Of a DNA stretch of 64,000 nucleotides, positions 16,906-46,673 are shown one piece after another. Origin of the DNA: Candidatus Magasanikiibacteriota bacterium (lineage in GTDB: Bacteria > Patescibacteriota > Patescibacteriia > Magasanikbacterales > JACTTX01). The notes below the pieces were generated by a model. It worked only from the letters and a program-made list of their open reading frames with translations. It was not told where the DNA came from and did no database searches. The first letter of the stretch is position 1, and every line of letters starts with the position of its first letter. The position numbers and the translations under genes are program-made. The stretch covers positions 856 to 64,855 of the forward strand of contig JACTTX010000002.1 in assembly GCA_015661005.1 (NCBI GenBank), given 5' to 3'.

Positions 16906-17391
16906 TTACTCCACCGGCTCAAAAAAGAATTGCGTTTCCGTTTTCTTTTCTTCTTTTTCCGGCCCCAAAGCCGCTGGCGATTCTTCATCTTGCGTCTCCA
17001 TCAAAATATCTCTAAGCGCGGACAACCCGCTCCAAGCCGGAGCCGCGACCGGTTCCAAGTATTGCGGTTCTTCTGAAGGTGTCACTTCTAAAGGTGCCAC
17101 TTCTAAATTTTCTCTTACAGACGCCGCCAAATCCTCCGTCGTTTTTTCTTTCTTTTGAGTTTCTCTCCAGAGCGCCACATCGCGATTGATTTTATCAATC
17201 AACTGTTCACCGCCGGTTTCTATTGGCGCCGCCGGAGCCGCCGAGTTTCCGTCCACTGCGGGCAAAACTAACCGTTCATATTCAGGCACGGTCATGACGA
17301 CGTAGGAATTATCACCGTCAATCACAATGGCGCGATCTCCGGTTTTTTGAATGAGTTTAAGGAGGCGTTCAATGGGAAACATAGTGAACAT
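16906..17391 (-). CDS. hypothetical protein, Phd/YefM-like N-terminal fold followed by an acidic disordered tail
   Basis: N-terminus ERLLKLIQKTGDRAIVIDGDNSYVVMTVPEYERL resembles the Phd/YefM antitoxin fold. The rest is E/P/A-rich. A sigma70-like promoter (TTGACT-17-TAAAAT) lies about 30 nt upstream. Confidence 0.4.
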   Translation of the reverse strand: MFTMFPIERLLKLIQKTGDRAIVIDGDNSYVVMTVPEYERLVLPAVDGNSAAPAAPIETGGEQLIDKINRDVALWRETQKKEKTTEDLAASVRENLEVAPLEVTPSEEPQYLEPVAAPAWSGLSALRDILMETQDEESPAALGPEKEEKKTETQFFFEPVE

Positions 17392-17515
17392 AGTGTGGTT
17401 ATTTTAAAACCTTTATGAATACGAGTCAAATAATTAGGTTTACCGCCATCATTGACTTTCAATCTTTTAATATGATATACTCGCATTGTAGGTAATCCCT
17501 ACCGGATTTTGATCA

Positions 17516-27611: not shown

Positions 27612-27684
27612 AAAAAGGACAGCGCATTGCAAATAGCGTGTTCTTCAATCAAGAACGCCATTGGCAATGCGCTGTCCTTTTTTG
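27612..27684. terminator. bidirectional intrinsic terminator / palindromic element, copy A
   Basis: 14-bp perfect outer stem GGACAGCGCATTGC/GCAATGCGCTGTCC around the inner core CGTGTTCTtCAATCAAGAACG. Flanked by an A-run on the 5' side and a T-run on the 3' side, between convergent rpmB and 27701..28174. Confidence 0.6.
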
Positions 27685-32433: not shown

Positions 32434-32826
32434 TTAACTCCGGCCGCGTTTTAAATCCGCCAACAACTTTTTCAACTTCTTGCGATCAACTTTGTCCGTC
32501 TCTTCCAAAAAACAAGCAATGGCAACCTCTCCGAATTCTTTTCTAATCCGTCCGAGCGTTTCTCCGGCCAGCGTCCGATAAAATTCTTGCCGCGTCAGAC
32601 GCGGACAAAAAACATGCTGACCGGCGCGAATATTTTTTTTGAGCACGCCTTTCTTAACCAGCCGATTCATAATGGTCATGATGGTGGTATAGGCGACATC
32701 AATTTTTTTATGCAAATGATCAACGACGTCCCGCACCGAACCCCCCTCCGGACGCGACCACAAAATATCCAGGATGTCTTTTTCCCGTTCGCCAAGCAAG
32801 CGTCCAACATGAGACGGTGTCCGCAT
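32434..32826 (-). CDS. BlaI/MecI/CopY-family transcriptional repressor
   Basis: LGEREKDILDILWSRPEGGSVRDVVDHL...YTTIMTIMNRLVKKGVLKK winged helix of the penicillinase-repressor family. No C-terminal Cys cluster, so BlaI-like rather than CopY-like. Confidence 0.8.
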   Translation of the reverse strand: MRTPSHVGRLLGEREKDILDILWSRPEGGSVRDVVDHLHKKIDVAYTTIMTIMNRLVKKGVLKKNIRAGQHVFCPRLTRQEFYRTLAGETLGRIRKEFGEVAIACFLEETDKVDRKKLKKLLADLKRGRS

Positions 32827-32837
32827 ATAAAAATTTA

Positions 32838-32857
32838 TCTACTACATTATGTAGAAG
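32838..32857. promoter_or_regulatory. putative BlaI-family operator (palindrome CTACA-TTA-TGTAG)
   Basis: The 13-bp perfect dyad contains TACA/TGTA half-sites like bla/mec/cop boxes. It sits 12 bp upstream of the blaI-like start and shares the 11-mer TACTACATTAT with 33311..33325. Confidence 0.5.
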
Positions 32858-32920
32858 ACAAGTCCAACGGTCAACCGGTTTTATCCACAGCGCAAAATTT
32901 TACCTCAACCATTCCCGTTT

Positions 32921-33301
32921 TCATCTGACCCACTCCCGCCACGATTTTGGCCAACCGCGTAGCAACAACAAGGCCAGAGGCGCGCCCCAGTTGGCCCATC
33001 TTTCCACAAAATCCCAAAACGATTCGCCAACCAACGGACGTAAAATGGCGGTCCAGAAACCCCAAACGGCGGCCCAAGCCAGCACACCGCGCACCGGCTT
33101 CACCAAAATAATCAAAGCCACAATCAGATCCATAATACCAATCGCCAACAAAATTTTGCCGGCCAAGACGGCGTCTGTCTGCAAAATTTCCTGAATCCAT
33201 TTGATCCACTGCGCTTTGCCTTGAATGGCAAAGACGCCGTGTCCGACGAATTCTCCAAAAATCGCGAGCCGCAAGGCCCAATGAGCAAGTTTATTTTCCA
33301 T
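32921..33301 (-). CDS. DoxX-like small membrane protein
   Basis: 126 aa with 3-4 TM helices and DoxX-like topology; weak assignment. Confidence 0.4.
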   Translation of the reverse strand: MENKLAHWALRLAIFGEFVGHGVFAIQGKAQWIKWIQEILQTDAVLAGKILLAIGIMDLIVALIILVKPVRGVLAWAAVWGFWTAILRPLVGESFWDFVERWANWGAPLALLLLRGWPKSWREWVR

Positions 33302-33310
33302 ATATTTATT

Positions 33311-33325
33311 TTACTACATTATACC
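33311..33325. promoter_or_regulatory. second TACTACATTAT box (operator half-site)
   Basis: ATTTATTTTACTACATTATACC lies 10 bp upstream of the DoxX-like start and shares ATTTAT..TACTACATTAT with the blaI operator region. Confidence 0.4.
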
Positions 33326-33329
33326 ACGA

Positions 33330-33716
33330 TTACTTGACGCCCTCCGGAAGAACGCAACCGCTTTCCCGCGCCAATCCGCTTAATCCTAATTCCCCCGCTA
33401 ACTTGCGACCGTCGGAAAAGATCCAGGTCGGATATTTTTCCACACCCTTATCAAGGCATGTTTGGGGATTATTCGGACACTCCACGTACTTCACAAATTG
33501 GAACGCGTCCCCGAAAGCCGCTTTTTCATTCTGGCAATGCGGACACCAGGCGGCGCCGTACATCGTGATGTCTTTTGTGGCAAGGCATTGGGCAAAAGAA
33601 TCCAGCGGCGCGGTGGCTGATTTTTTTTCCGACCATCTTGATATCGTCACAATTCCCGCAACAATGAGCGCGACTACCCCCGCCGAAATTAATAATGATT
33701 TCATATCATACAGCAA
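33330..33716 (-). CDS. membrane-anchored thioredoxin-like protein (VKOR-associated Trx-like type)
   Basis: MYGAAWCPHCQNEKAAFGDAF...YVEC closely matches the Trx-like domain usually fused to bacterial VKOR homologues. Confidence 0.7.
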   Translation of the reverse strand: MLYDMKSLLISAGVVALIVAGIVTISRWSEKKSATAPLDSFAQCLATKDITMYGAAWCPHCQNEKAAFGDAFQFVKYVECPNNPQTCLDKGVEKYPTWIFSDGRKLAGELGLSGLARESGCVLPEGVK

Positions 33717-33747
33717 ATATTTGAATTTTGAAAGTGACCTGCCAGTG

Positions 33748-33882
33748 GCGAATGGAAAGGCGCAAATGTCGTGTTGCTTAGAACAATAACGCTACAGTGA
33801 CTGGAGAATGGAAGGACGCAAATATCGTGTTCTCCAATCAAGAACGATATTTGCGTCCTTCCATTCTCTATTCTCTATTCTC
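33748..33882. repeat. palindromic element copy B (plus a degenerate half copy upstream)
   Basis: 24-bp perfect inverted repeat GAGAATGGAAGGACGCAAATATCG/CGATATTTGCGTCCTTCCATTCTC around the same inner core CGTGTTCTcCAATCAAGAACG as copy A. It is preceded by a partial left-arm copy and followed by a (TTCTCTA)n run. Confidence 0.6.
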
Positions 33883-33884
33883 TG

Positions 33885-34340
33885 TCAACAACATTGTTCC
33901 ATCTTCTTCTCCAGATCTTCCACGCGCCGCTGACTCCCGCCGGACTTACCAACACGCAGGCATATGGCGGCCGTCACGAGCATCACCGTCAAAGCCAAAA
34001 GCAGAATCCACCACCAACTTTGAGTCACGCCATAAACGGCCGTGAAGCCGGCCGGAATAAAAATCATTTTCCAAGCGAGCGGCTTAATGTGCGGCGCCAG
34101 ATATTTCTCCGCTTGATAAGCAATGCCGACAACGGATCCGCCCATCAGAATTGTCGGCACAAAAAGATCAATCGTGAATCCCGCCGGATGCCAGCCGCCA
34201 AAATAAAGCGCCAACATCCAAATCCAAGTTCCGGCCGCACCGGCGCAAATTGGACACAAACGCTTGCCGGTCGCGCGGTTAAGCAGCGCCGCCAGCCCGG
34301 CAATCGTGTAAAGGGAAATTAAAGCGATGAGAATATTCAT
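33885..34340 (-). CDS. DsbB/VKOR-like candidate: small polytopic membrane protein with CPIC motif
   Basis: 151 aa, about 4-5 TM helices, LCPICAGAAG at a TM boundary, C-terminal QCC. Neighbours a Trx-like protein of the VKOR-partner type and CcdA. Confidence 0.4.
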   Translation of the reverse strand: MNILIALISLYTIAGLAALLNRATGKRLCPICAGAAGTWIWMLALYFGGWHPAGFTIDLFVPTILMGGSVVGIAYQAEKYLAPHIKPLAWKMIFIPAGFTAVYGVTQSWWWILLLALTVMLVTAAICLRVGKSGGSQRRVEDLEKKMEQCC

Positions 34341-35119
34341 AACAGAAAAATTATTACACCAAGAATGACCATCAACAAGCCGTCGGCCCAGCGCATTTTT
34401 CCGCGGACGCGCGCCTGCCAGACCTGAACTTTTTCAATGACCGCGCTTTTACTCGCGATTACTAAAATAATCACGAGCGGCAGAATAAAGATTAAATTGT
34501 AGTAGAGAAGATACGCCAAACCGCGCAGGAAGGTGGCGTTGTCATGCAAGAGTCCGAGCACCATGAGATACGGGCCGCCAGTGCAGGGAAATTCGCAAAG
34601 CCCAACGAGCGCTCCCAAAAGAAAAGCCGTTGGCGCGGAAGCGCGATCCATAAGCGCGGCCATGCGATGATGAACGCCTTGCGGAATACGGAGCTTGATT
34701 GGGAACGAAGGAAAGTATTCATTCACCAAATTCACGAGACCAAGTACAATCAAAATCCCGGCGCCGATCTTGGCCATGAAATGCGGCGTGTTGAAAAGAT
34801 GCAGGGTCTGCAAAATCCCCAGCCCAATCAAGATGTAGACCGCAAAAATCCCAAAAATGTAAGTGCCGCCAATAGCCAGAATCCGCCCGCGCAATTTTCC
34901 GATGCTTGCCAAAAAGGCAATCGTCAGAATCAAGATGGAAAAAGCGCAGGGGTTGATGCTGTCAACAACGGCCGCCACGGTAACGAGCGGCAGGAGCAAT
35001 TGTCCGCCATTGCTGATTTTCCACAAAACACCGGCCCCGGCCGCGCCGGAAAAACCGATAATTGATACAACAACAAACGCCGCCGACACTACAATAATGA
35101 ACAACCATTTTTTTTTCAT
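34337..35119 (-). CDS. ccdA: cytochrome c-type biogenesis protein CcdA / DsbD transmembrane-domain family
   Basis: Conserved Cys in TM1 (DSINPCAF) and TM4 (LCEFPCTGGPYL); 260 aa. Confidence 0.8.
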   Translation of the reverse strand: MKKKWLFIIVVSAAFVVVSIIGFSGAAGAGVLWKISNGGQLLLPLVTVAAVVDSINPCAFSILILTIAFLASIGKLRGRILAIGGTYIFGIFAVYILIGLGILQTLHLFNTPHFMAKIGAGILIVLGLVNLVNEYFPSFPIKLRIPQGVHHRMAALMDRASAPTAFLLGALVGLCEFPCTGGPYLMVLGLLHDNATFLRGLAYLLYYNLIFILPLVIILVIASKSAVIEKVQVWQARVRGKMRWADGLLMVILGVIIFLL

Positions 35120-35127
35120 AATCGCGA

Positions 35128-35622
35128 TTAAGGCGTGACCGTGGCCGTAAAATTCAACTCCAGCGGCCGACCGTTCGGATTATCCAAGTAAACGATGCGG
35201 GAGATTTTTCCAACACCGGCCGGTCCGTGCGCCGCCGGATCAAACGTTACTTCCACGGTGGCCTCTTCACCCGCTTCTATAACTTCATTGATGGTCGGAA
35301 CCGGCAGATGTCCGGGCATACCAACCGGTCCGAAAGTTTTTCCGTTATGCATGACTTTCGCCTCCGTGCACATGCAGGACGTATAGAACTTCACGATTTT
35401 CGCCGACTCACTGCCGTTGTTTTTAACTTTGAATTCATGGGTAACTTTCCCTTTGGCCATGGAAACCGTGCCGAAGTCATAAGAATTTTCCAGTGCGGTC
35501 AAAACGCCTTTGGCGTCAATGGTTTGTTTTTCCTCCGGCGCCGCGCCGGATCGGGCAAACCAAATCAGGGCTCCGGCAATGACGGCAATCGCCGCCACGT
35601 TGATAATCATTTTTGAATTCAT
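35128..35622 (-). CDS. DUF1573 domain-containing membrane-anchored protein
   Basis: N-terminal TM helix, then an Ig-like domain with the CMC motif (FYTSCMCTEAK) typical of DUF1573. Confidence 0.6.
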   Translation of the reverse strand: MNSKMIINVAAIAVIAGALIWFARSGAAPEEKQTIDAKGVLTALENSYDFGTVSMAKGKVTHEFKVKNNGSESAKIVKFYTSCMCTEAKVMHNGKTFGPVGMPGHLPVPTINEVIEAGEEATVEVTFDPAAHGPAGVGKISRIVYLDNPNGRPLELNFTATVTP

Positions 35623-35719
35623 ATAATTTTTGGTGATTAAACACGTTTACTCGCGAAACAAAAAATCCGCGTGAACGTATGAAACCGGCCGCCCCGACGT
35701 AATGTCAAGACCGACCGGA

Positions 35720-36106
35720 CTAAATCAATGACGGGCTGAATTCCAATTGCGCCAACCAGCGCAAAAAACTTTTTTGCCTTTGCAAAATTGCTTTCAGAAA
35801 AAGACGTTGCCGCGTTTTTACAAACCGCGTTCCATCAACGGCACAGGCAGTGTAAAATGACAAGAAAAAAACAGCGCCCAGCAAACCCAAAAAAATAAAA
35901 TCAACAATGACGGCGTTGGTAAAATTACGGAAGGCGGCAAAATGAAAAGCCATGGAGTCATCGGTGTGGCGCTCGTTCGGACATTCGGCGCCAAAAGCAA
36001 TGGCCGCCAAGCAACGGCCGTTTTGCGCGCCGCGACCCATTCCGCTGAATGCGCCGACGGAAATTATCACCAGCAAGGCAACAGTAATGGCAATAAAAAA
36101 TTTCAT
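35720..36106 (-). CDS. hypothetical small membrane protein
   Basis: MKFFIAITVALLVIISVGAF signal/TM region followed by a GxC...AEC segment. Start taken at the ATG at 36106, which follows the structured leader. Confidence 0.35.
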   Translation of the reverse strand: MKFFIAITVALLVIISVGAFSGMGRGAQNGRCLAAIAFGAECPNERHTDDSMAFHFAAFRNFTNAVIVDFIFLGLLGAVFFLSFYTACAVDGTRFVKTRQRLFLKAILQRQKSFLRWLAQLEFSPSLI

Positions 36107-36332
36107 GAAGCGAGTATAAACGTTTTTCAAAAAAATTACAATGGGAGTCCCCTCTGCGACCGCCGGACTCGTGACCTATCCCGTGAGGAACAGGTGGGTC
36201 GCCGCACGCGTGGCCCAAGGGCCGCGCAAATATTGGCATCCCTATTGATGAGATTGTAGAGAAAGTCATCGCCCGACGGCGGCAGGAAGAGGACACTTTC
36301 AATATACCGCGCCGCCAAGCGCGATGCAACAT
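36107..36332 (-). promoter_or_regulatory. promoter and structured ~190-nt 5' leader with terminator/antiterminator-like alternative pairings
   Basis: Minus strand: TTGCAT-17-TATATT promoter at 36329..36301. The leader ends in the hairpin GAGUCC-(14 nt)-GGACUC followed by UUGUAAUUUUUUU about 30 nt before the ATG. The 5' segment GUCCUCUUCCUGCCGCCG is complementary to the loop and 3' half of that hairpin. Confidence 0.4.
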
Positions 36333-36351
36333 GACGTAATATGCCGCAACA

Positions 36352-36391
36352 CGCGACAAAAAAAGAACGACCACTGATGTTAACAGTGGTC
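36352..36391 (-). terminator. intrinsic terminator
   Basis: Minus strand GACCACUG-uuaacau-CAGUGGUC (8-bp perfect stem) followed by GUUCUUUUUUUUG, about 55 nt after the stop of the 91-aa ORF. Confidence 0.65.
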
Positions 36392-36445
36392 GCCCCCTTA
36401 ATTCGTGTTGCCCCCTTGGACAGTGCCCTTGTTCACAGGACACTG

Positions 36446-36721
36446 TTACACTGTTGTACCGAAGACATGCTCGTCGCCGGAGAGTATAGCATCCAGATGT
36501 TCGTACGACTGGAATCTCCCGGTCCACTCCAGCTCGAGCTGACGTAGCTGTTCCACATGTAGCGGCTCCGCAAGGCCACTATTCACGCGCTGCTGCAAAG
36601 AATAGATGGCCATGTCCAAACGGGCGAGCGCTGTTTCTTGCTTGGCGTGCGCCGTCGTGACTGCTGGATAGCTGTCGCTGATCCTTCGCCAACGAACTTT
36701 CCTACCATCACCTTCTTCCAT
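36446..36721 (-). CDS. hypothetical small protein (91 aa)
   Basis: ATG at 36721 is preceded by AAGGGGG 6 nt upstream. Protein-like composition (MEEGDGRKVRWRRISDSYPAVTTAHAKQETALARLDMAIYSLQQ...). The unit is bounded by a leader upstream and the strong terminator downstream, with locally higher GC. Confidence 0.4.
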   Translation of the reverse strand: MEEGDGRKVRWRRISDSYPAVTTAHAKQETALARLDMAIYSLQQRVNSGLAEPLHVEQLRQLELEWTGRFQSYEHLDAILSGDEHVFGTTV

Positions 36722-36799
36722 ACAGCCCCCTTGGTTGATGTCCGTGTGGTCGGCCTTCGCGCCCCCTTTGAGGCGAAAGCCAAACCATTCGTGCGGCAA

Positions 36800-36890
36800 C
36801 CATATAAACTAAACCGCCCCGACGGACGTCGGGGCGGTGTGTGTCTTTCGTAATCTTATCTCATACGACACCGCCCCGGCTCAAGGATAG
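36800..36890 (-). promoter_or_regulatory. GC-rich alternative hairpins (three GGGGCGG/CCGCCCC segments) followed by U-run; either the ndk terminator or an attenuator
   Basis: Minus strand GGGGCGGUG-(29 nt)-CACCGCCCC GACGUCCGUC GGGGCGG UUUAGUUUAUAU. The middle CCGCCCC can pair with either flanking GGGGCGG, so the two structures are mutually exclusive. Confidence 0.35.
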
Positions 36891-37008
36891 CAAAAAGGAC
36901 GAACACCTTCTTAATGGTCATCGCGCGATCCGAGTGGCGGCAAACTTGCGTCATACTTTATCTATCAGACCACGGCGGCAAAAACCCTGTCAAATGAGTT
37001 ATCCACAA

Positions 37009-37461
37009 TTACTCCAGCTCCTCCGCCACATAAACGTGGATGTATTCACCCTTGTCATATTCCAAAAGTTCTTCCGGTTTAAAAAATCGCGCGATTTCTT
37101 TGGCCGCCGTCTCCACGGAATCCGAAGCGTGCACAACGTTGCAAGCCACACTCATGGCCAAATCTCCGCGGATGGAACCGGCTTCGGCGGCGCGCGCTTT
37201 AGTGATGCCGGAAATTAAACGCACCGCTTGCACGACTTCCAATCCTTCCCAAACGGAAACCACAACCGGCGAACTTTGCATAAATTGAGCGACGCCCGGG
37301 AAAAAAGGTTTGTCGGCAATGTGGGAATAATGCTCGCGCAGAACGGCTTCATCAAGACGCATCATTTTTGCGGCGACAAGTTTCAATCCTTTTTTTTCCA
37401 AACGATTAAAAACTTCCCCGACCAGTCCGCGTTGGACGCCATCCGGTTTCACGATGACCAA
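37009..37461 (-). CDS. ndk: nucleoside diphosphate kinase
   Basis: NVVHASDS (NxxHGSD) active-site motif; TLVIVKPDGVQRGLVGEV N-terminus, apparently with a TTG start. Confidence 0.9.
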   Translation of the reverse strand: MVIVKPDGVQRGLVGEVFNRLEKKGLKLVAAKMMRLDEAVLREHYSHIADKPFFPGVAQFMQSSPVVVSVWEGLEVVQAVRLISGITKARAAEAGSIRGDLAMSVACNVVHASDSVETAAKEIARFFKPEELLEYDKGEYIHVYVAEELE

Positions 37462-46592: not shown

Positions 46593-46596
46593 ATTT

Positions 46597-46665
46597 GGGG
46601 ACAGTTCTAAAGGGGACACTTCTAAACGCAAAGCGTTTAGAAGTGTCCCCTTTAGAACTGTCCCC
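46597..46665. repeat. 69-bp perfect palindrome (33-bp arms, 3-nt loop)
   Basis: GGGGACAGTTCTAAAGGGGACACTTCTAAACGC-aaa-GCGTTTAGAAGTGTCCCCTTTAGAACTGTCCCC lies between the queA start and the mltG stop. Confidence 0.9.
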
Positions 46666-46673
46666 ATCCCATC

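Follow-up and report, generated by a model that had tools for sequence, protein, structure and literature searches.

Background

The ScsABCD (suppressor of copper sensitivity) proteins of Salmonella and other proteobacteria are encoded by one operon, in which a DsbD-family electron transporter of the membrane is joined by thiol proteins, either tethered to the membrane or periplasmic, and by a small membrane protein with a CxxC motif and without a Trx fold (PMC10907172). The window that we analysed, a 64,000-nucleotide stretch of contig JACTTX010000002.1 from a Candidatus Magasanikiibacteriota bacterium, contains a minus-strand gene cassette that shares these traits with Scs and also its link to copper stress, which in the case of the cassette comes from the gene neighborhood (P1B ATPase, CsoR, multicopper oxidase and CusF). 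However, the cassette shows no homology to ScsA or ScsC and has no ScsC-like (DsbA/DsbG-like) gene; its 260-aa CcdA-like protein corresponds to the membrane core alone, without the periplasmic domains of ScsB; its partner genes encode DUF1573, ORF1 and a CPIC-motif protein; and its host is a monoderm-like Patescibacterium. Hence, the similarity to Scs appears to be one of function rather than of membership.

The CcdA-like protein is also comparable to the electron transporters of the CcdA-ResA and DsbD-DsbC/DsbG/CcmG pathways, which are membrane proteins of the six-helix type, have two essential cysteines in PC motifs and are encoded next to thiol proteins that act outside the cytoplasm. Unlike those transporters it scores below the Pfam and NCBIfam cut-offs, with Pfam SfLAP as the best, weak Pfam match (32.2 against a cut-off of 35), and with ArsG (E = 5e-7) as the best NCBIfam match and DsbD at E = 0.004, both far under their cut-offs; further, cytochrome c maturation genes are absent near the cassette. 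The thiophilic-metal proteins MerC, MerF and MerT are small, helical and membrane-bound; one of their two cysteine pairs sits within a membrane helix, the other in the cytoplasm. The CPIC protein of the cassette resembles them in design only, as it has no sequence or profile match to them and no mer genes lie nearby. The VKOR-thioredoxin fusion of Synechococcus (3KP8/3KP9) is the best solved match of the 128-aa thioredoxin of the cassette (E = 5e-19; next match 1.7e-7), which aligns to the last membrane helix and the Trx domain of the fusion and is thus of the VKOR-fused type, as had been proposed from the sequence; but the cassette protein has no fused or adjacent VKOR, and its CPIC neighbor is not VKOR-like.

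Two further kinds of system bear on the region upstream of the cassette. Leaderless mRNAs have their -10 box about 6-10 nt before the start codon, a spacing shared by the window and by 35 of 57 orthologous loci; the window differs in having a second, upstream promoter-like site, and its leaderless start is a predicted one. Attenuators and riboswitches that act through intrinsic terminators resemble the upstream region insofar as two mutually exclusive pairings can be drawn in it, but it lacks a stable hairpin with a direct U tract, energetically balanced folds, conservation and a family match. Our analysis suggests that the locus probably holds two separate things that a first-pass annotation, made from the sequence of the window, had merged: a gene cassette, and an upstream region with a leaderless-type promoter and no attenuator.

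A conserved cassette of cysteine-motif proteins

The minus-strand ORFs are all present as first described, and the cassette is made up as follows:

35720..36106, minus strand: ORF1, which opens the cassette and encodes a membrane protein of 128 aa with two helices
35128..35622, minus strand: DUF1573, Ig-like, anchored in the membrane by its N-terminus and carrying C83-M-C85
34337..35119, minus strand: 260-aa membrane protein of the CcdA/DsbD superfamily, with NPC and CxFPCxGGP motifs
33885..34340, minus strand: CPIC...CC protein, 151 aa, with five predicted membrane helices
33330..33704, minus strand: thioredoxin with a membrane anchor and a WCPHC motif, of the kind found fused to VKOR in bacteria, likely start ATG 33704

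A genome-locus survey recovered the order ORF1-DUF1573-CcdA-CPIC(-Trx) in 80 other genomes, giving 81 loci with the window. Alignments of homologues showed that the cysteine motifs are invariant in each product, and the original view of the locus as a thiol/disulfide-type cluster, with a CcdA-like protein and a thioredoxin of the VKOR-partner type, is borne out by the conserved cysteines in all of them. In ORF1, which iterated HMM searches placed directly 5' of DUF1573 in 57 loci, C32 and C42 are invariant (C-x9-C) and H55 is conserved; it has no match in Pfam or NCBIfam. The DUF1573 assignment was confirmed by a match to PF07610 above the gathering cut-off (51 bits against 26.1; E = 1.5e-13) and by the TSCMCT motif, whose CxC is 98% conserved in the homologue alignment; DUF1573 proteins also occur in selenoprotein forms, with UGC at the CxC motif (PMC9312934). 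Although the database scores of the CcdA-like protein are weak, its cysteines in NPC (C58) and CxFPCxGGP (C175 and C179) are invariant across 74 sequences, as expected of a CcdA/DsbD-like protein. The thioredoxin carries additional cysteine pairs that are conserved in the alignment of homologues. As judged from the loci surveyed, the cassette is widespread in Patescibacteria and extends to some Burkholderiales, with ORF1, DUF1573, the CcdA-like protein and CPIC...CC conserved and the VKOR-type thioredoxin usually next.

A gene for a P1B heavy-metal ATPase lies within 7 kb of the cassette in 51 of the 81 loci, on the same strand as the cassette in 92% of cases and with its stop codon at most 30 nt 5' of ORF1 in 7 loci. 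The TM4 motif of these ATPases is CPH in 21 loci, CPC in 19 and CPD in 5, and CsoR (PF02583, E = 2e-23) is found nearby in 28 of the 81. On a Burkholderiales chromosome (L082) the module is embedded in a copper-resistance island, flanked on one side by genes for a multicopper oxidase, a cupredoxin and CusF, and on the other by genes for a redoxin, a DsbD_TM protein and a P1B ATPase. No copper ATPase or CsoR gene was found adjoining the cassette in this window. The link to copper-export genes does not figure in the first-pass annotation.

On the model of Scs, which copper induces, and of the DsbD/CcdA pathways, the CcdA-like protein, whose gene is present in every occurrence of the module, may transfer reducing equivalents through the membrane to Cys-pair proteins anchored outside, which under copper excess would hold envelope thiols reduced or bind Cu(I). 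A copper/thiol function of this kind is suggested by the motifs, with the gene neighborhood as the only link to copper. We tentatively propose, as a reading that falls somewhat short of an even chance, that the cassette represents a copper-linked thiol system of the envelope, not described before, that is widespread in Patescibacteria and reaches some Burkholderiales, and that CPIC...CC is a new family of relay proteins with four cytoplasmic cysteines. Patescibacteria have tiny genomes and their stress physiology is little known; a five-gene cassette of Cys-motif proteins kept across many of their lineages and linked to copper exporters would point to a system devoted to protecting envelope thiols from copper. 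In addition, ORF1 and CPIC...CC constitute two uncharacterised protein families that are testable in heterologous hosts.

Predicted topology of the CPIC...CC family

The 151-aa protein does carry the CPIC motif, and its family comprises 669 representatives at 50% identity. Both C29 and C32 are invariant, as is C151 of the C-terminal CC, with C150 present in at least 90% of sequences, and the family displays a GGSVVGIAY motif. It belongs to no Pfam family, and no solved structural relative was found. The mean number of lysines and arginines is low in the N-tail (0), loop 2 (0.08) and loop 4 (0.23), and high in loop 1 with the end of helix 1 (about 2.2), loop 3 (3.8) and the C-tail (5.4). By the positive-inside rule, both the CPIC and the C-terminal CC are predicted to be cytoplasmic. 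One protein is a fusion of CPIC...CC to the 'PCC...PDCNHGMA' protein, which in other cases often comes after it.

The CPIC protein had been regarded as a possible DsbB/VKOR analogue, and together with the adjacent thioredoxin it might form a new oxidative, disulfide-forming pair replacing DsbB/VKOR. The VKOR-fused type of the thioredoxin, the position of its gene right after the CPIC gene in about 28 loci and the membrane CxxC of the CPIC protein are consistent with such a pair. Against it, neither DsbB nor VKOR appeared among the fold matches of the CPIC protein, sequence similarity to them was likewise absent, both cysteine motifs face the cytoplasm by the distribution of lysine and arginine, and every module includes the reductive CcdA-like partner. 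We consider an oxidative pair decidedly unlikely; with both motifs predicted on the cytoplasmic side, the CPIC...CC protein more probably relays metal or electrons than acts as an oxidase of the DsbB/VKOR kind.

Promoters upstream of ORF1 and the supposed attenuator

The region between the upstream transcription unit and ORF1 contains the following features:

36354..36399, minus strand: intrinsic terminator that closes the upstream transcription unit, with a U run after its 16-bp stem
36301..36329, minus strand: distal promoter-like site TTGCAT-17-TATATT, the promoter of the first-pass annotation
36147..36296, minus strand: orphan GC-rich structured element, 150 nt, 62% GC
36145..36170, minus strand: GAGUCC-N14-GGACUC, the 'terminator' hairpin of the first-pass annotation, not predicted to form
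36113..36141, minus strand: proximal promoter TTGTAA-17-TATACT, separated by 6 nt from the ATG of ORF1, so that a leaderless mRNA is predicted

The terminator of the preceding unit is strong (-23 kcal/mol, z = -6.5) and is followed by UUCUUUUUUU. Two promoter-like sites thus fall within 230 nt here, where the background rate is 0.34 per kb per strand. The proximal one has the sequence layout of a leaderless unit (-10 box about 5-10 nt from the start codon, -35 box at a spacing of 16-18 nt), reading TTGTAA-17-TATACT-6-ATG. Using a criterion of at least 5 of 6 matches, we found a -10 box 5-13 nt 5' of the ORF1 ATG in 35 of the 57 homologous loci, against 5.3% of all ATGs, 10% of DUF1573 starts and 4% of CcdA starts; the conserved arrangement is therefore predicted to be a leaderless or near-leaderless mRNA. 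The same type of promoter spacing occurs at another gene of the window, and Shine-Dalgarno motifs, on reading the sequence, are absent from the genes here and are rare across the loci. These sequence comparisons make TTGTAA-17-TATACT the most likely promoter of the cassette.

The distal site was found at 36329-36301, as reported. It matches the sigma-70 consensus at 8 of 12 positions and was not called by the promoter scan; Orthologous ORF1 promoters often have -35 hexamers of the TTGC type, and the site is also a plausible promoter. Among the compared loci, a second, upstream promoter-like site occurs in this window only. The start predicted for the distal site (about 36295) falls at the 5' edge of the structured element, so a transcript with a long leader may well be made.

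The first-pass annotation had interpreted this leader as an attenuator or riboswitch, in which an RNA of about 190 nt from the distal promoter would toggle between terminator and antiterminator and so set read-through into the cassette. The distal site does lie just 3' of a strong terminator, its RNA would open with a stable, well-defined fold, and an upstream segment does pair, as had been proposed, with both the loop and the 3' half of the GAGUCC/GGACUC hairpin, forming the 21-bp closing helix of the minimum-free-energy fold, with which the hairpin is mutually exclusive. However, the hairpin itself, with 6 bp and a 14-nt loop, reaches just -9.0 kcal/mol when folded alone, has an ensemble pair probability of about 0 and is missing from the local minimum-free-energy fold; its 56-nt segment has z = +1.3, with 188 of 200 shuffles folding as well or better. 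Forcing it gives -56.4 against -73.6 kcal/mol, a penalty of 17 kcal/mol relative to the closing helix, and the two folds are thus far from balanced. The U7 run (36135-36129) begins 9 nt past the stem and is part of the spacer of the proximal promoter, which abuts the start codon, and the terminator scan made no call at the site. Rfam offered no matching family, in agreement with the earlier remark that no riboswitch was recognised, and no evidence was found of the ligand-controlled expression that had been suggested.

Conservation of the leader in related genomes had been named as a test of the attenuator, and here loci with ORF1 homologues have no such leader: their promoter lies at the ATG and the median gap from ORF1 to the upstream gene is 104 nt. 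No copy of the leader was recovered by sequence or covariance-model searches of 0.96 Mb of related DNA. An attenuator leader is unsupported because the promoter of related genomes sits directly against the first start codon, and we regard this interpretation as very improbable. A plausible terminator/antiterminator drawn by hand may be an artefact, the 'U tract' here being promoter spacer, and comparing promoter position over orthologous loci decides such a question without transcript data.

A structured element in the upstream region

The roughly 190 nt between the distal site and the ATG at 36106 are structured, as had been noted, with z = -3.9 for a 201-nt fold of this stretch. The 150-nt core (36147..36296) folds at -72.4 kcal/mol with z = -4.5, and its minimum-free-energy fold equals the centroid. 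Its closing helix pairs 36294-36271 with 36168-36147 at a probability of about 0.94 and encloses three hairpins (36270-36247, 36242-36196 and 36195-36174). As z < -3.5 is reached by about 3% of 170-nt windows of this 64-kb sequence, the structure is notable and not exceptional. The folding model predicts one dominant fold and no switch. Rfam scans at gathering thresholds and by E-value gave no match to the element. It has no second copy in the 64 kb and no protein similarity. Searches with nhmmer and a covariance model gave no homologue in 0.96 Mb of related DNA, in which the matching upstream region of a close relative is absent, and among the sequences compared the element appears lineage-specific.

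The element may be a 5' extension from the second promoter, a small RNA or an insertion; that it is a new structured RNA particular to this lineage is a further, smaller possibility. As part of a constitutive long 5' UTR, or as an independent small RNA, it would be made from the distal promoter alongside the leaderless proximal one, for example as a stabilising 5' structure or a trans-acting RNA. A predicted start right where the closing helix begins to pair, together with the well-defined fold, is in line with this, and, as Shine-Dalgarno motifs are absent here and rare elsewhere, translation from the long transcript is possible. We still consider such a role rather unlikely, given that a small RNA would have no canonical terminator at its end, that neither a second copy nor a homologue exists in the DNA searched, and that equally good folds are found in 3% of windows of the same sequence.

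It is unlikely, too, that the element is a functionless lineage-specific insertion, for instance what is left of a palindromic or MITE-like unit bounded by terminal inverted repeats. Its GC content stands out (62% against about 50% nearby), the 21-bp closing helix resembles terminal inverted repeats, other long perfect palindromes occur elsewhere in the window, and there is a likeness to the repeat between the CPIC and Trx genes, which the closest relative lacks; but there is no further copy in the 64 kb or in the 0.96 Mb of related DNA, and on reading the flanks no target-site duplication is visible.

The inter-gene repeat and downstream genes

Beyond the CPIC gene the window contains:

33746..33876, no strand assigned: repeat/palindrome between the CPIC and Trx genes, with three copies of a unit of about 30 nt
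32921..33301, minus strand: conserved membrane protein, 126 aa, near the cassette in about 15 loci
32434..32874, minus strand: separate downstream unit of a BlaI/CopY-family repressor, with promoter TTGACC-17-CATAAT
32432-31611: M56 peptidase gene, after the repressor gene
31614-30463: gene for a 383-aa Trx-like protein, after the M56 peptidase gene

The palindrome between the CPIC and Trx genes is present and long, as previously observed: two of its unit copies are direct and one is inverted, and the arms of the hairpin span 33 nt with 91% complementarity (z = -8.9). The closest relative (L003) lacks the repeat and has just 20-26 nt between the stop of the CPIC gene and the start of the Trx gene, which suggests a lineage-specific insertion. 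The 126-aa membrane protein had been labelled DoxX-like, but it has no DoxX match in Pfam, even at E <= 1, or in NCBIfam, and it belongs to no assigned family. The promoter of the BlaI/CopY unit bears a TACATAATGTA operator (32843-32853), followed by the repressor gene. We considered whether the cassette belongs to a BlaI/MecI/CopY regulon and rejected this, the sole TACA-N3-TGTA operator of the window being at the repressor's own promoter, with none at the cassette promoters. The operator at 32843-32853 is also conserved in L003.

The cassette and its protein families

The gene cluster for which the first-pass annotation had proposed an oxidative-folding or reductant-export role is real and more general than that account conveyed, whereas the attenuator, the DsbB/VKOR analogue and the DoxX label that came with it are not supported.

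Table. Six products encoded from 36106 to 32921 (minus strand)
ORF1, minus strand, ATG at 36106: membrane protein, 128 aa
DUF1573 protein, minus strand: PF07610, E = 1.5e-13
CcdA/DsbD-like membrane protein, minus strand: 260 aa; SfLAP, ArsG and DsbD matches all under cut-off
CPIC protein, minus strand: 151 aa, with CPIC and a C-terminal CC
Thioredoxin, minus strand: anchored, 128 aa, VKOR-partner type
Membrane protein, minus strand: 126 aa; previously called DoxX-like, no DoxX match

Scanning a single genome for each species recovered 80 loci with the CPIC cassette, in which the DUF1573, CcdA and CPIC genes are nearly always neighbors on the same strand and the VKOR-type thioredoxin follows next in about 28. 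The CPIC protein, which has no family in Pfam or NCBIfam, typifies a family of about 150 aa (669 representatives at 50% identity) with a GGSVVGIAY motif, invariant Cys29, Cys32 and Cys151, and Cys150 in at least 90% of members. ORF1 appears orphan-like in a word-based search, which retrieves only itself; an iterated HMM places it directly 5' of DUF1573 in 57 loci, with C32 and C42 invariant and H55 in 92% of sequences. Given these residues, the C-M-C of DUF1573 and the NPC and FPCxGGP motifs of the CcdA-like protein, every product of the cassette (ORF1, DUF1573, CcdA-like and CPIC) bears conserved cysteines. DUF1573 selenoproteins with UGC at the C-M-C position exist (PMC9312934), and this form marks the C-M-C as the reactive site. 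The closest solved structures to the thioredoxin are those of the Trx domain of the Synechococcus VKOR-Trx fusion (3KP8/3KP9, E = 5e-19), followed by a second-best match of only E = 1.7e-7, which bears out its earlier assignment to the VKOR-fused type. Among ten ORFs at 23.7-30.5 kb that were annotated with Pfam there was no VKOR, and the other thiol cluster that the first-pass annotation had counted as the first was not located.

Predicted topology of the CPIC protein

Across the CPIC family, lysine plus arginine counts average about 2.2 in loop 1 with the end of helix 1, 3.8 in loop 3 and 5.4 in the C-tail, as against 0 in the N-tail, 0.08 in loop 2 and 0.23 in loop 4. By the positive-inside rule, both the CPIC motif and the terminal CC are predicted to face the cytoplasm, a placement that argues against a DsbB/VKOR-like oxidase and leaves the proposed analogy unsupported. 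It instead suggests a four-cysteine site directed toward the cytoplasm that might act as a metal or electron relay.

Gene neighborhoods and copper

Clustering of the ORFs flanking the cassette in 81 loci revealed a P-type ATPase family in 51 of them, on the same strand in 92%, with a heavy-metal-binding domain and a CPH, CPC or CPD motif in TM4; in seven loci the ATPase stop codon lies at most 30 nt 5' of ORF1. CsoR (PF02583, E = 2e-23) occurs near the cassette in 28 loci, and SHOCT proteins are also among the neighbors. In a complete Burkholderiales chromosome (CP070661.1; locus L082, 500-13200) the DUF1573-CcdA-CPIC module lies inside a copper-resistance island, flanked on one side by a multicopper oxidase, a cupredoxin and CusF, and on the other by a redoxin, a canonical DsbD_TM protein and a P1B ATPase; the island also holds an outer-membrane efflux protein and a CMD-family protein. 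This context suggests transfer of the module between phyla. No copper ATPase or CsoR gene adjoins the cassette in the present window. Going only by gene neighborhood, we infer that the cassette may serve an envelope function in copper/thiol stress, with the DsbD/CcdA pathways and the Scs system (PMC10907172) as proposed functional analogues. An unassigned, membrane-anchored protein of about 311 aa (P0172) with the signature YRPCCGN...PDCNHGMA is encoded 3' of the CPIC gene in 56 of the 81 loci (e.g. L074, 7412-8347) and is absent from this window; one database protein is a direct fusion of CPIC...CC with a membrane helix and a PCC...PDCNHGMA domain.

The region 5' of ORF1

Table. Sites between the upstream unit and ORF1 (minus strand)
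36329-36301, minus strand: distal promoter-like site, TTGCAT-17-TATATT
36296-36147, minus strand: structured 150-nt element
36141-36113, minus strand: proximal promoter, TTGTAA-17-TATACT
36106, minus strand: ATG of ORF1

The upstream unit ends in a strong terminator of its own (36399-36354, z = -6.5), and the distal promoter-like site, the structured stretch and the ATG noted in the first-pass annotation are all present. That annotation had read the stretch as an attenuator leader, with a GAGUCC-N14-GGACUC hairpin and a U7 run as terminator. By itself this hairpin has a free energy of -9.0 kcal/mol; it is missing from the local minimum-free-energy fold (56-nt segment, z = +1.3), has an ensemble pair probability of about 0 and incurs a penalty of 17 kcal/mol if forced, and the U7 run begins 9 nt past its stem. 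The supposed antiterminator is the 21-bp closing helix of the element, which would always win over the hairpin, so that there would be no balanced switch. Rfam scans by E-value over 33000-37000, at the gathering threshold over the whole window and permissively over 36090-36480 gave no match to the leader. The weak hairpin, distant U7, unbalanced folds and lack of an Rfam match thus leave the attenuator unsupported. At the gathering threshold no Rfam family was found anywhere in the 64-kb window, in which tRNA and tmRNA genes likewise number zero.

The U7 run sits within the proximal promoter, whose -10 box ends 6 nt 5' of the ATG. When the ORF1 starts of homologous loci were aligned, a -10 box (at least 5/6 matches) was found 5-13 nt 5' of the ATG in 35/57 loci, in many cases paired with a TTGnnn -35 hexamer 16-18 nt away, against a background of 5.3% for all ATG trinucleotides, 10% for DUF1573 starts and 4% for CcdA starts. 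The gap from ORF1 to the upstream gene has a median of 104 nt (100 nt or less in half of the loci), leaving no room for a 190-nt leader. This promoter position, together with the short gaps, implies that the conserved design, as read from sequence, is a predicted leaderless or near-leaderless mRNA. Conservation of the leader across related genomes was not seen at the sampled distances, the very outcome that the first-pass annotation had named as refuting its attenuator reading. Shine-Dalgarno-like motifs are absent 5' of the window's cassette genes. Another leaderless-type arrangement occurs at 17391-17429 (minus strand), where a 161-aa ORF has its ATG 9 nt past TTGACT-17-TAAAAT.

The element itself (62% GC) folds into three hairpins inside the 21-bp closing helix at -72.4 kcal/mol (z = -4.5), with the centroid identical to the minimum-free-energy fold; for scale, 3% of this strand's 170-nt windows fall below z = -3.5. 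The window contains the element just once, and nhmmer and a single-sequence covariance model (R1) over 87 sources and 0.96 Mb of related DNA recovered nothing but the element, the same-strain contigs L001 and L002 being identical across it. For covariation, ORF1 matches itself alone, the one close CPIC relative (L003/L004, 76% identity) ends inside the CcdA gene, and DUF1573 relatives reach only about 50% identity in the metagenome scan and 58% at best in the protein search. When 36100-37010 was compared by blastx with the ORFs of all loci, no match fell below E = 1. Sites of the form TTG-N16-18-(-10) number two in 230 nt here versus 0.34 per kb per strand overall, and the predicted start of the distal site falls right where pairing in the element begins. 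The distal site is plausible as a true promoter, and its transcripts would probably run on into ORF1, because no canonical terminator lies between. The element could belong to a constitutive isoform with a long leader, or be a small RNA; a regulatory RNA of unspecified type is another option, as is an inert insertion. The last is favored by the repeat at 33746-33876 between the CPIC and Trx genes, which points to insertion as a local habit.

Between ndk and the cassette lies a candidate ORF (36446-36799, minus strand, 91-117 aa) flanked by terminator-like hairpins; its 117-aa form has no family match. Downstream of ndk, at 36813-36885 (minus strand), GGGGCGGUGU...ACACCGCCCC competes with a terminator-like hairpin, ACCGCCCCGACG-UCCG-UCGGGGCGGU, followed by UUUAGUUUAU, which looks closer to a terminator/antiterminator geometry than the site first proposed; with z-scores of -1.7 to -1.9 its folding is unremarkable, and 36808-36922 gives a weak Rfam Phe_leader match (E = 4.4).

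The downstream repressor unit

The unit after the cassette has its own promoter and encodes a BlaI/CopY-family repressor, an M56 peptidase and a 383-aa Trx-like protein. At window 32838-32874 its promoter, TTGACC-17-CATAAT, overlaps the palindromic operator TACATAATGTA, which is the sole copy in the window, is kept in the closest relative (region 2700-2745 of L003) and is absent from the cassette promoters. The conserved palindrome suggests that the unit is autoregulated. The window contains no CopY box of the form TACANNTGTA.

Repeats and palindromes

33746-33876, between the CPIC and Trx genes: repeat/palindrome forming a hairpin with 33-nt arms (z = -8.9)

This repeat comprises three copies, two direct and one inverted, of a ~30-nt unit, TGGaGAATGGAAgGaCGCAAATaTCGTGTT, with no further copies in the window or the loci; the Rfam scans hit this palindrome alone, and only as a generic hairpin. 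It is missing from L003, where the CPIC-Trx gap is just 20-26 nt, and is therefore a recent insertion. Two other very long, near-perfect inverted repeats, at 46596-46666 (34-nt arms, 100% complementary, z = -13.6) and 27612-27682 (28-nt arms, 93% complementary), show no sequence relationship to one another or to the palindrome at 33.8 kb.
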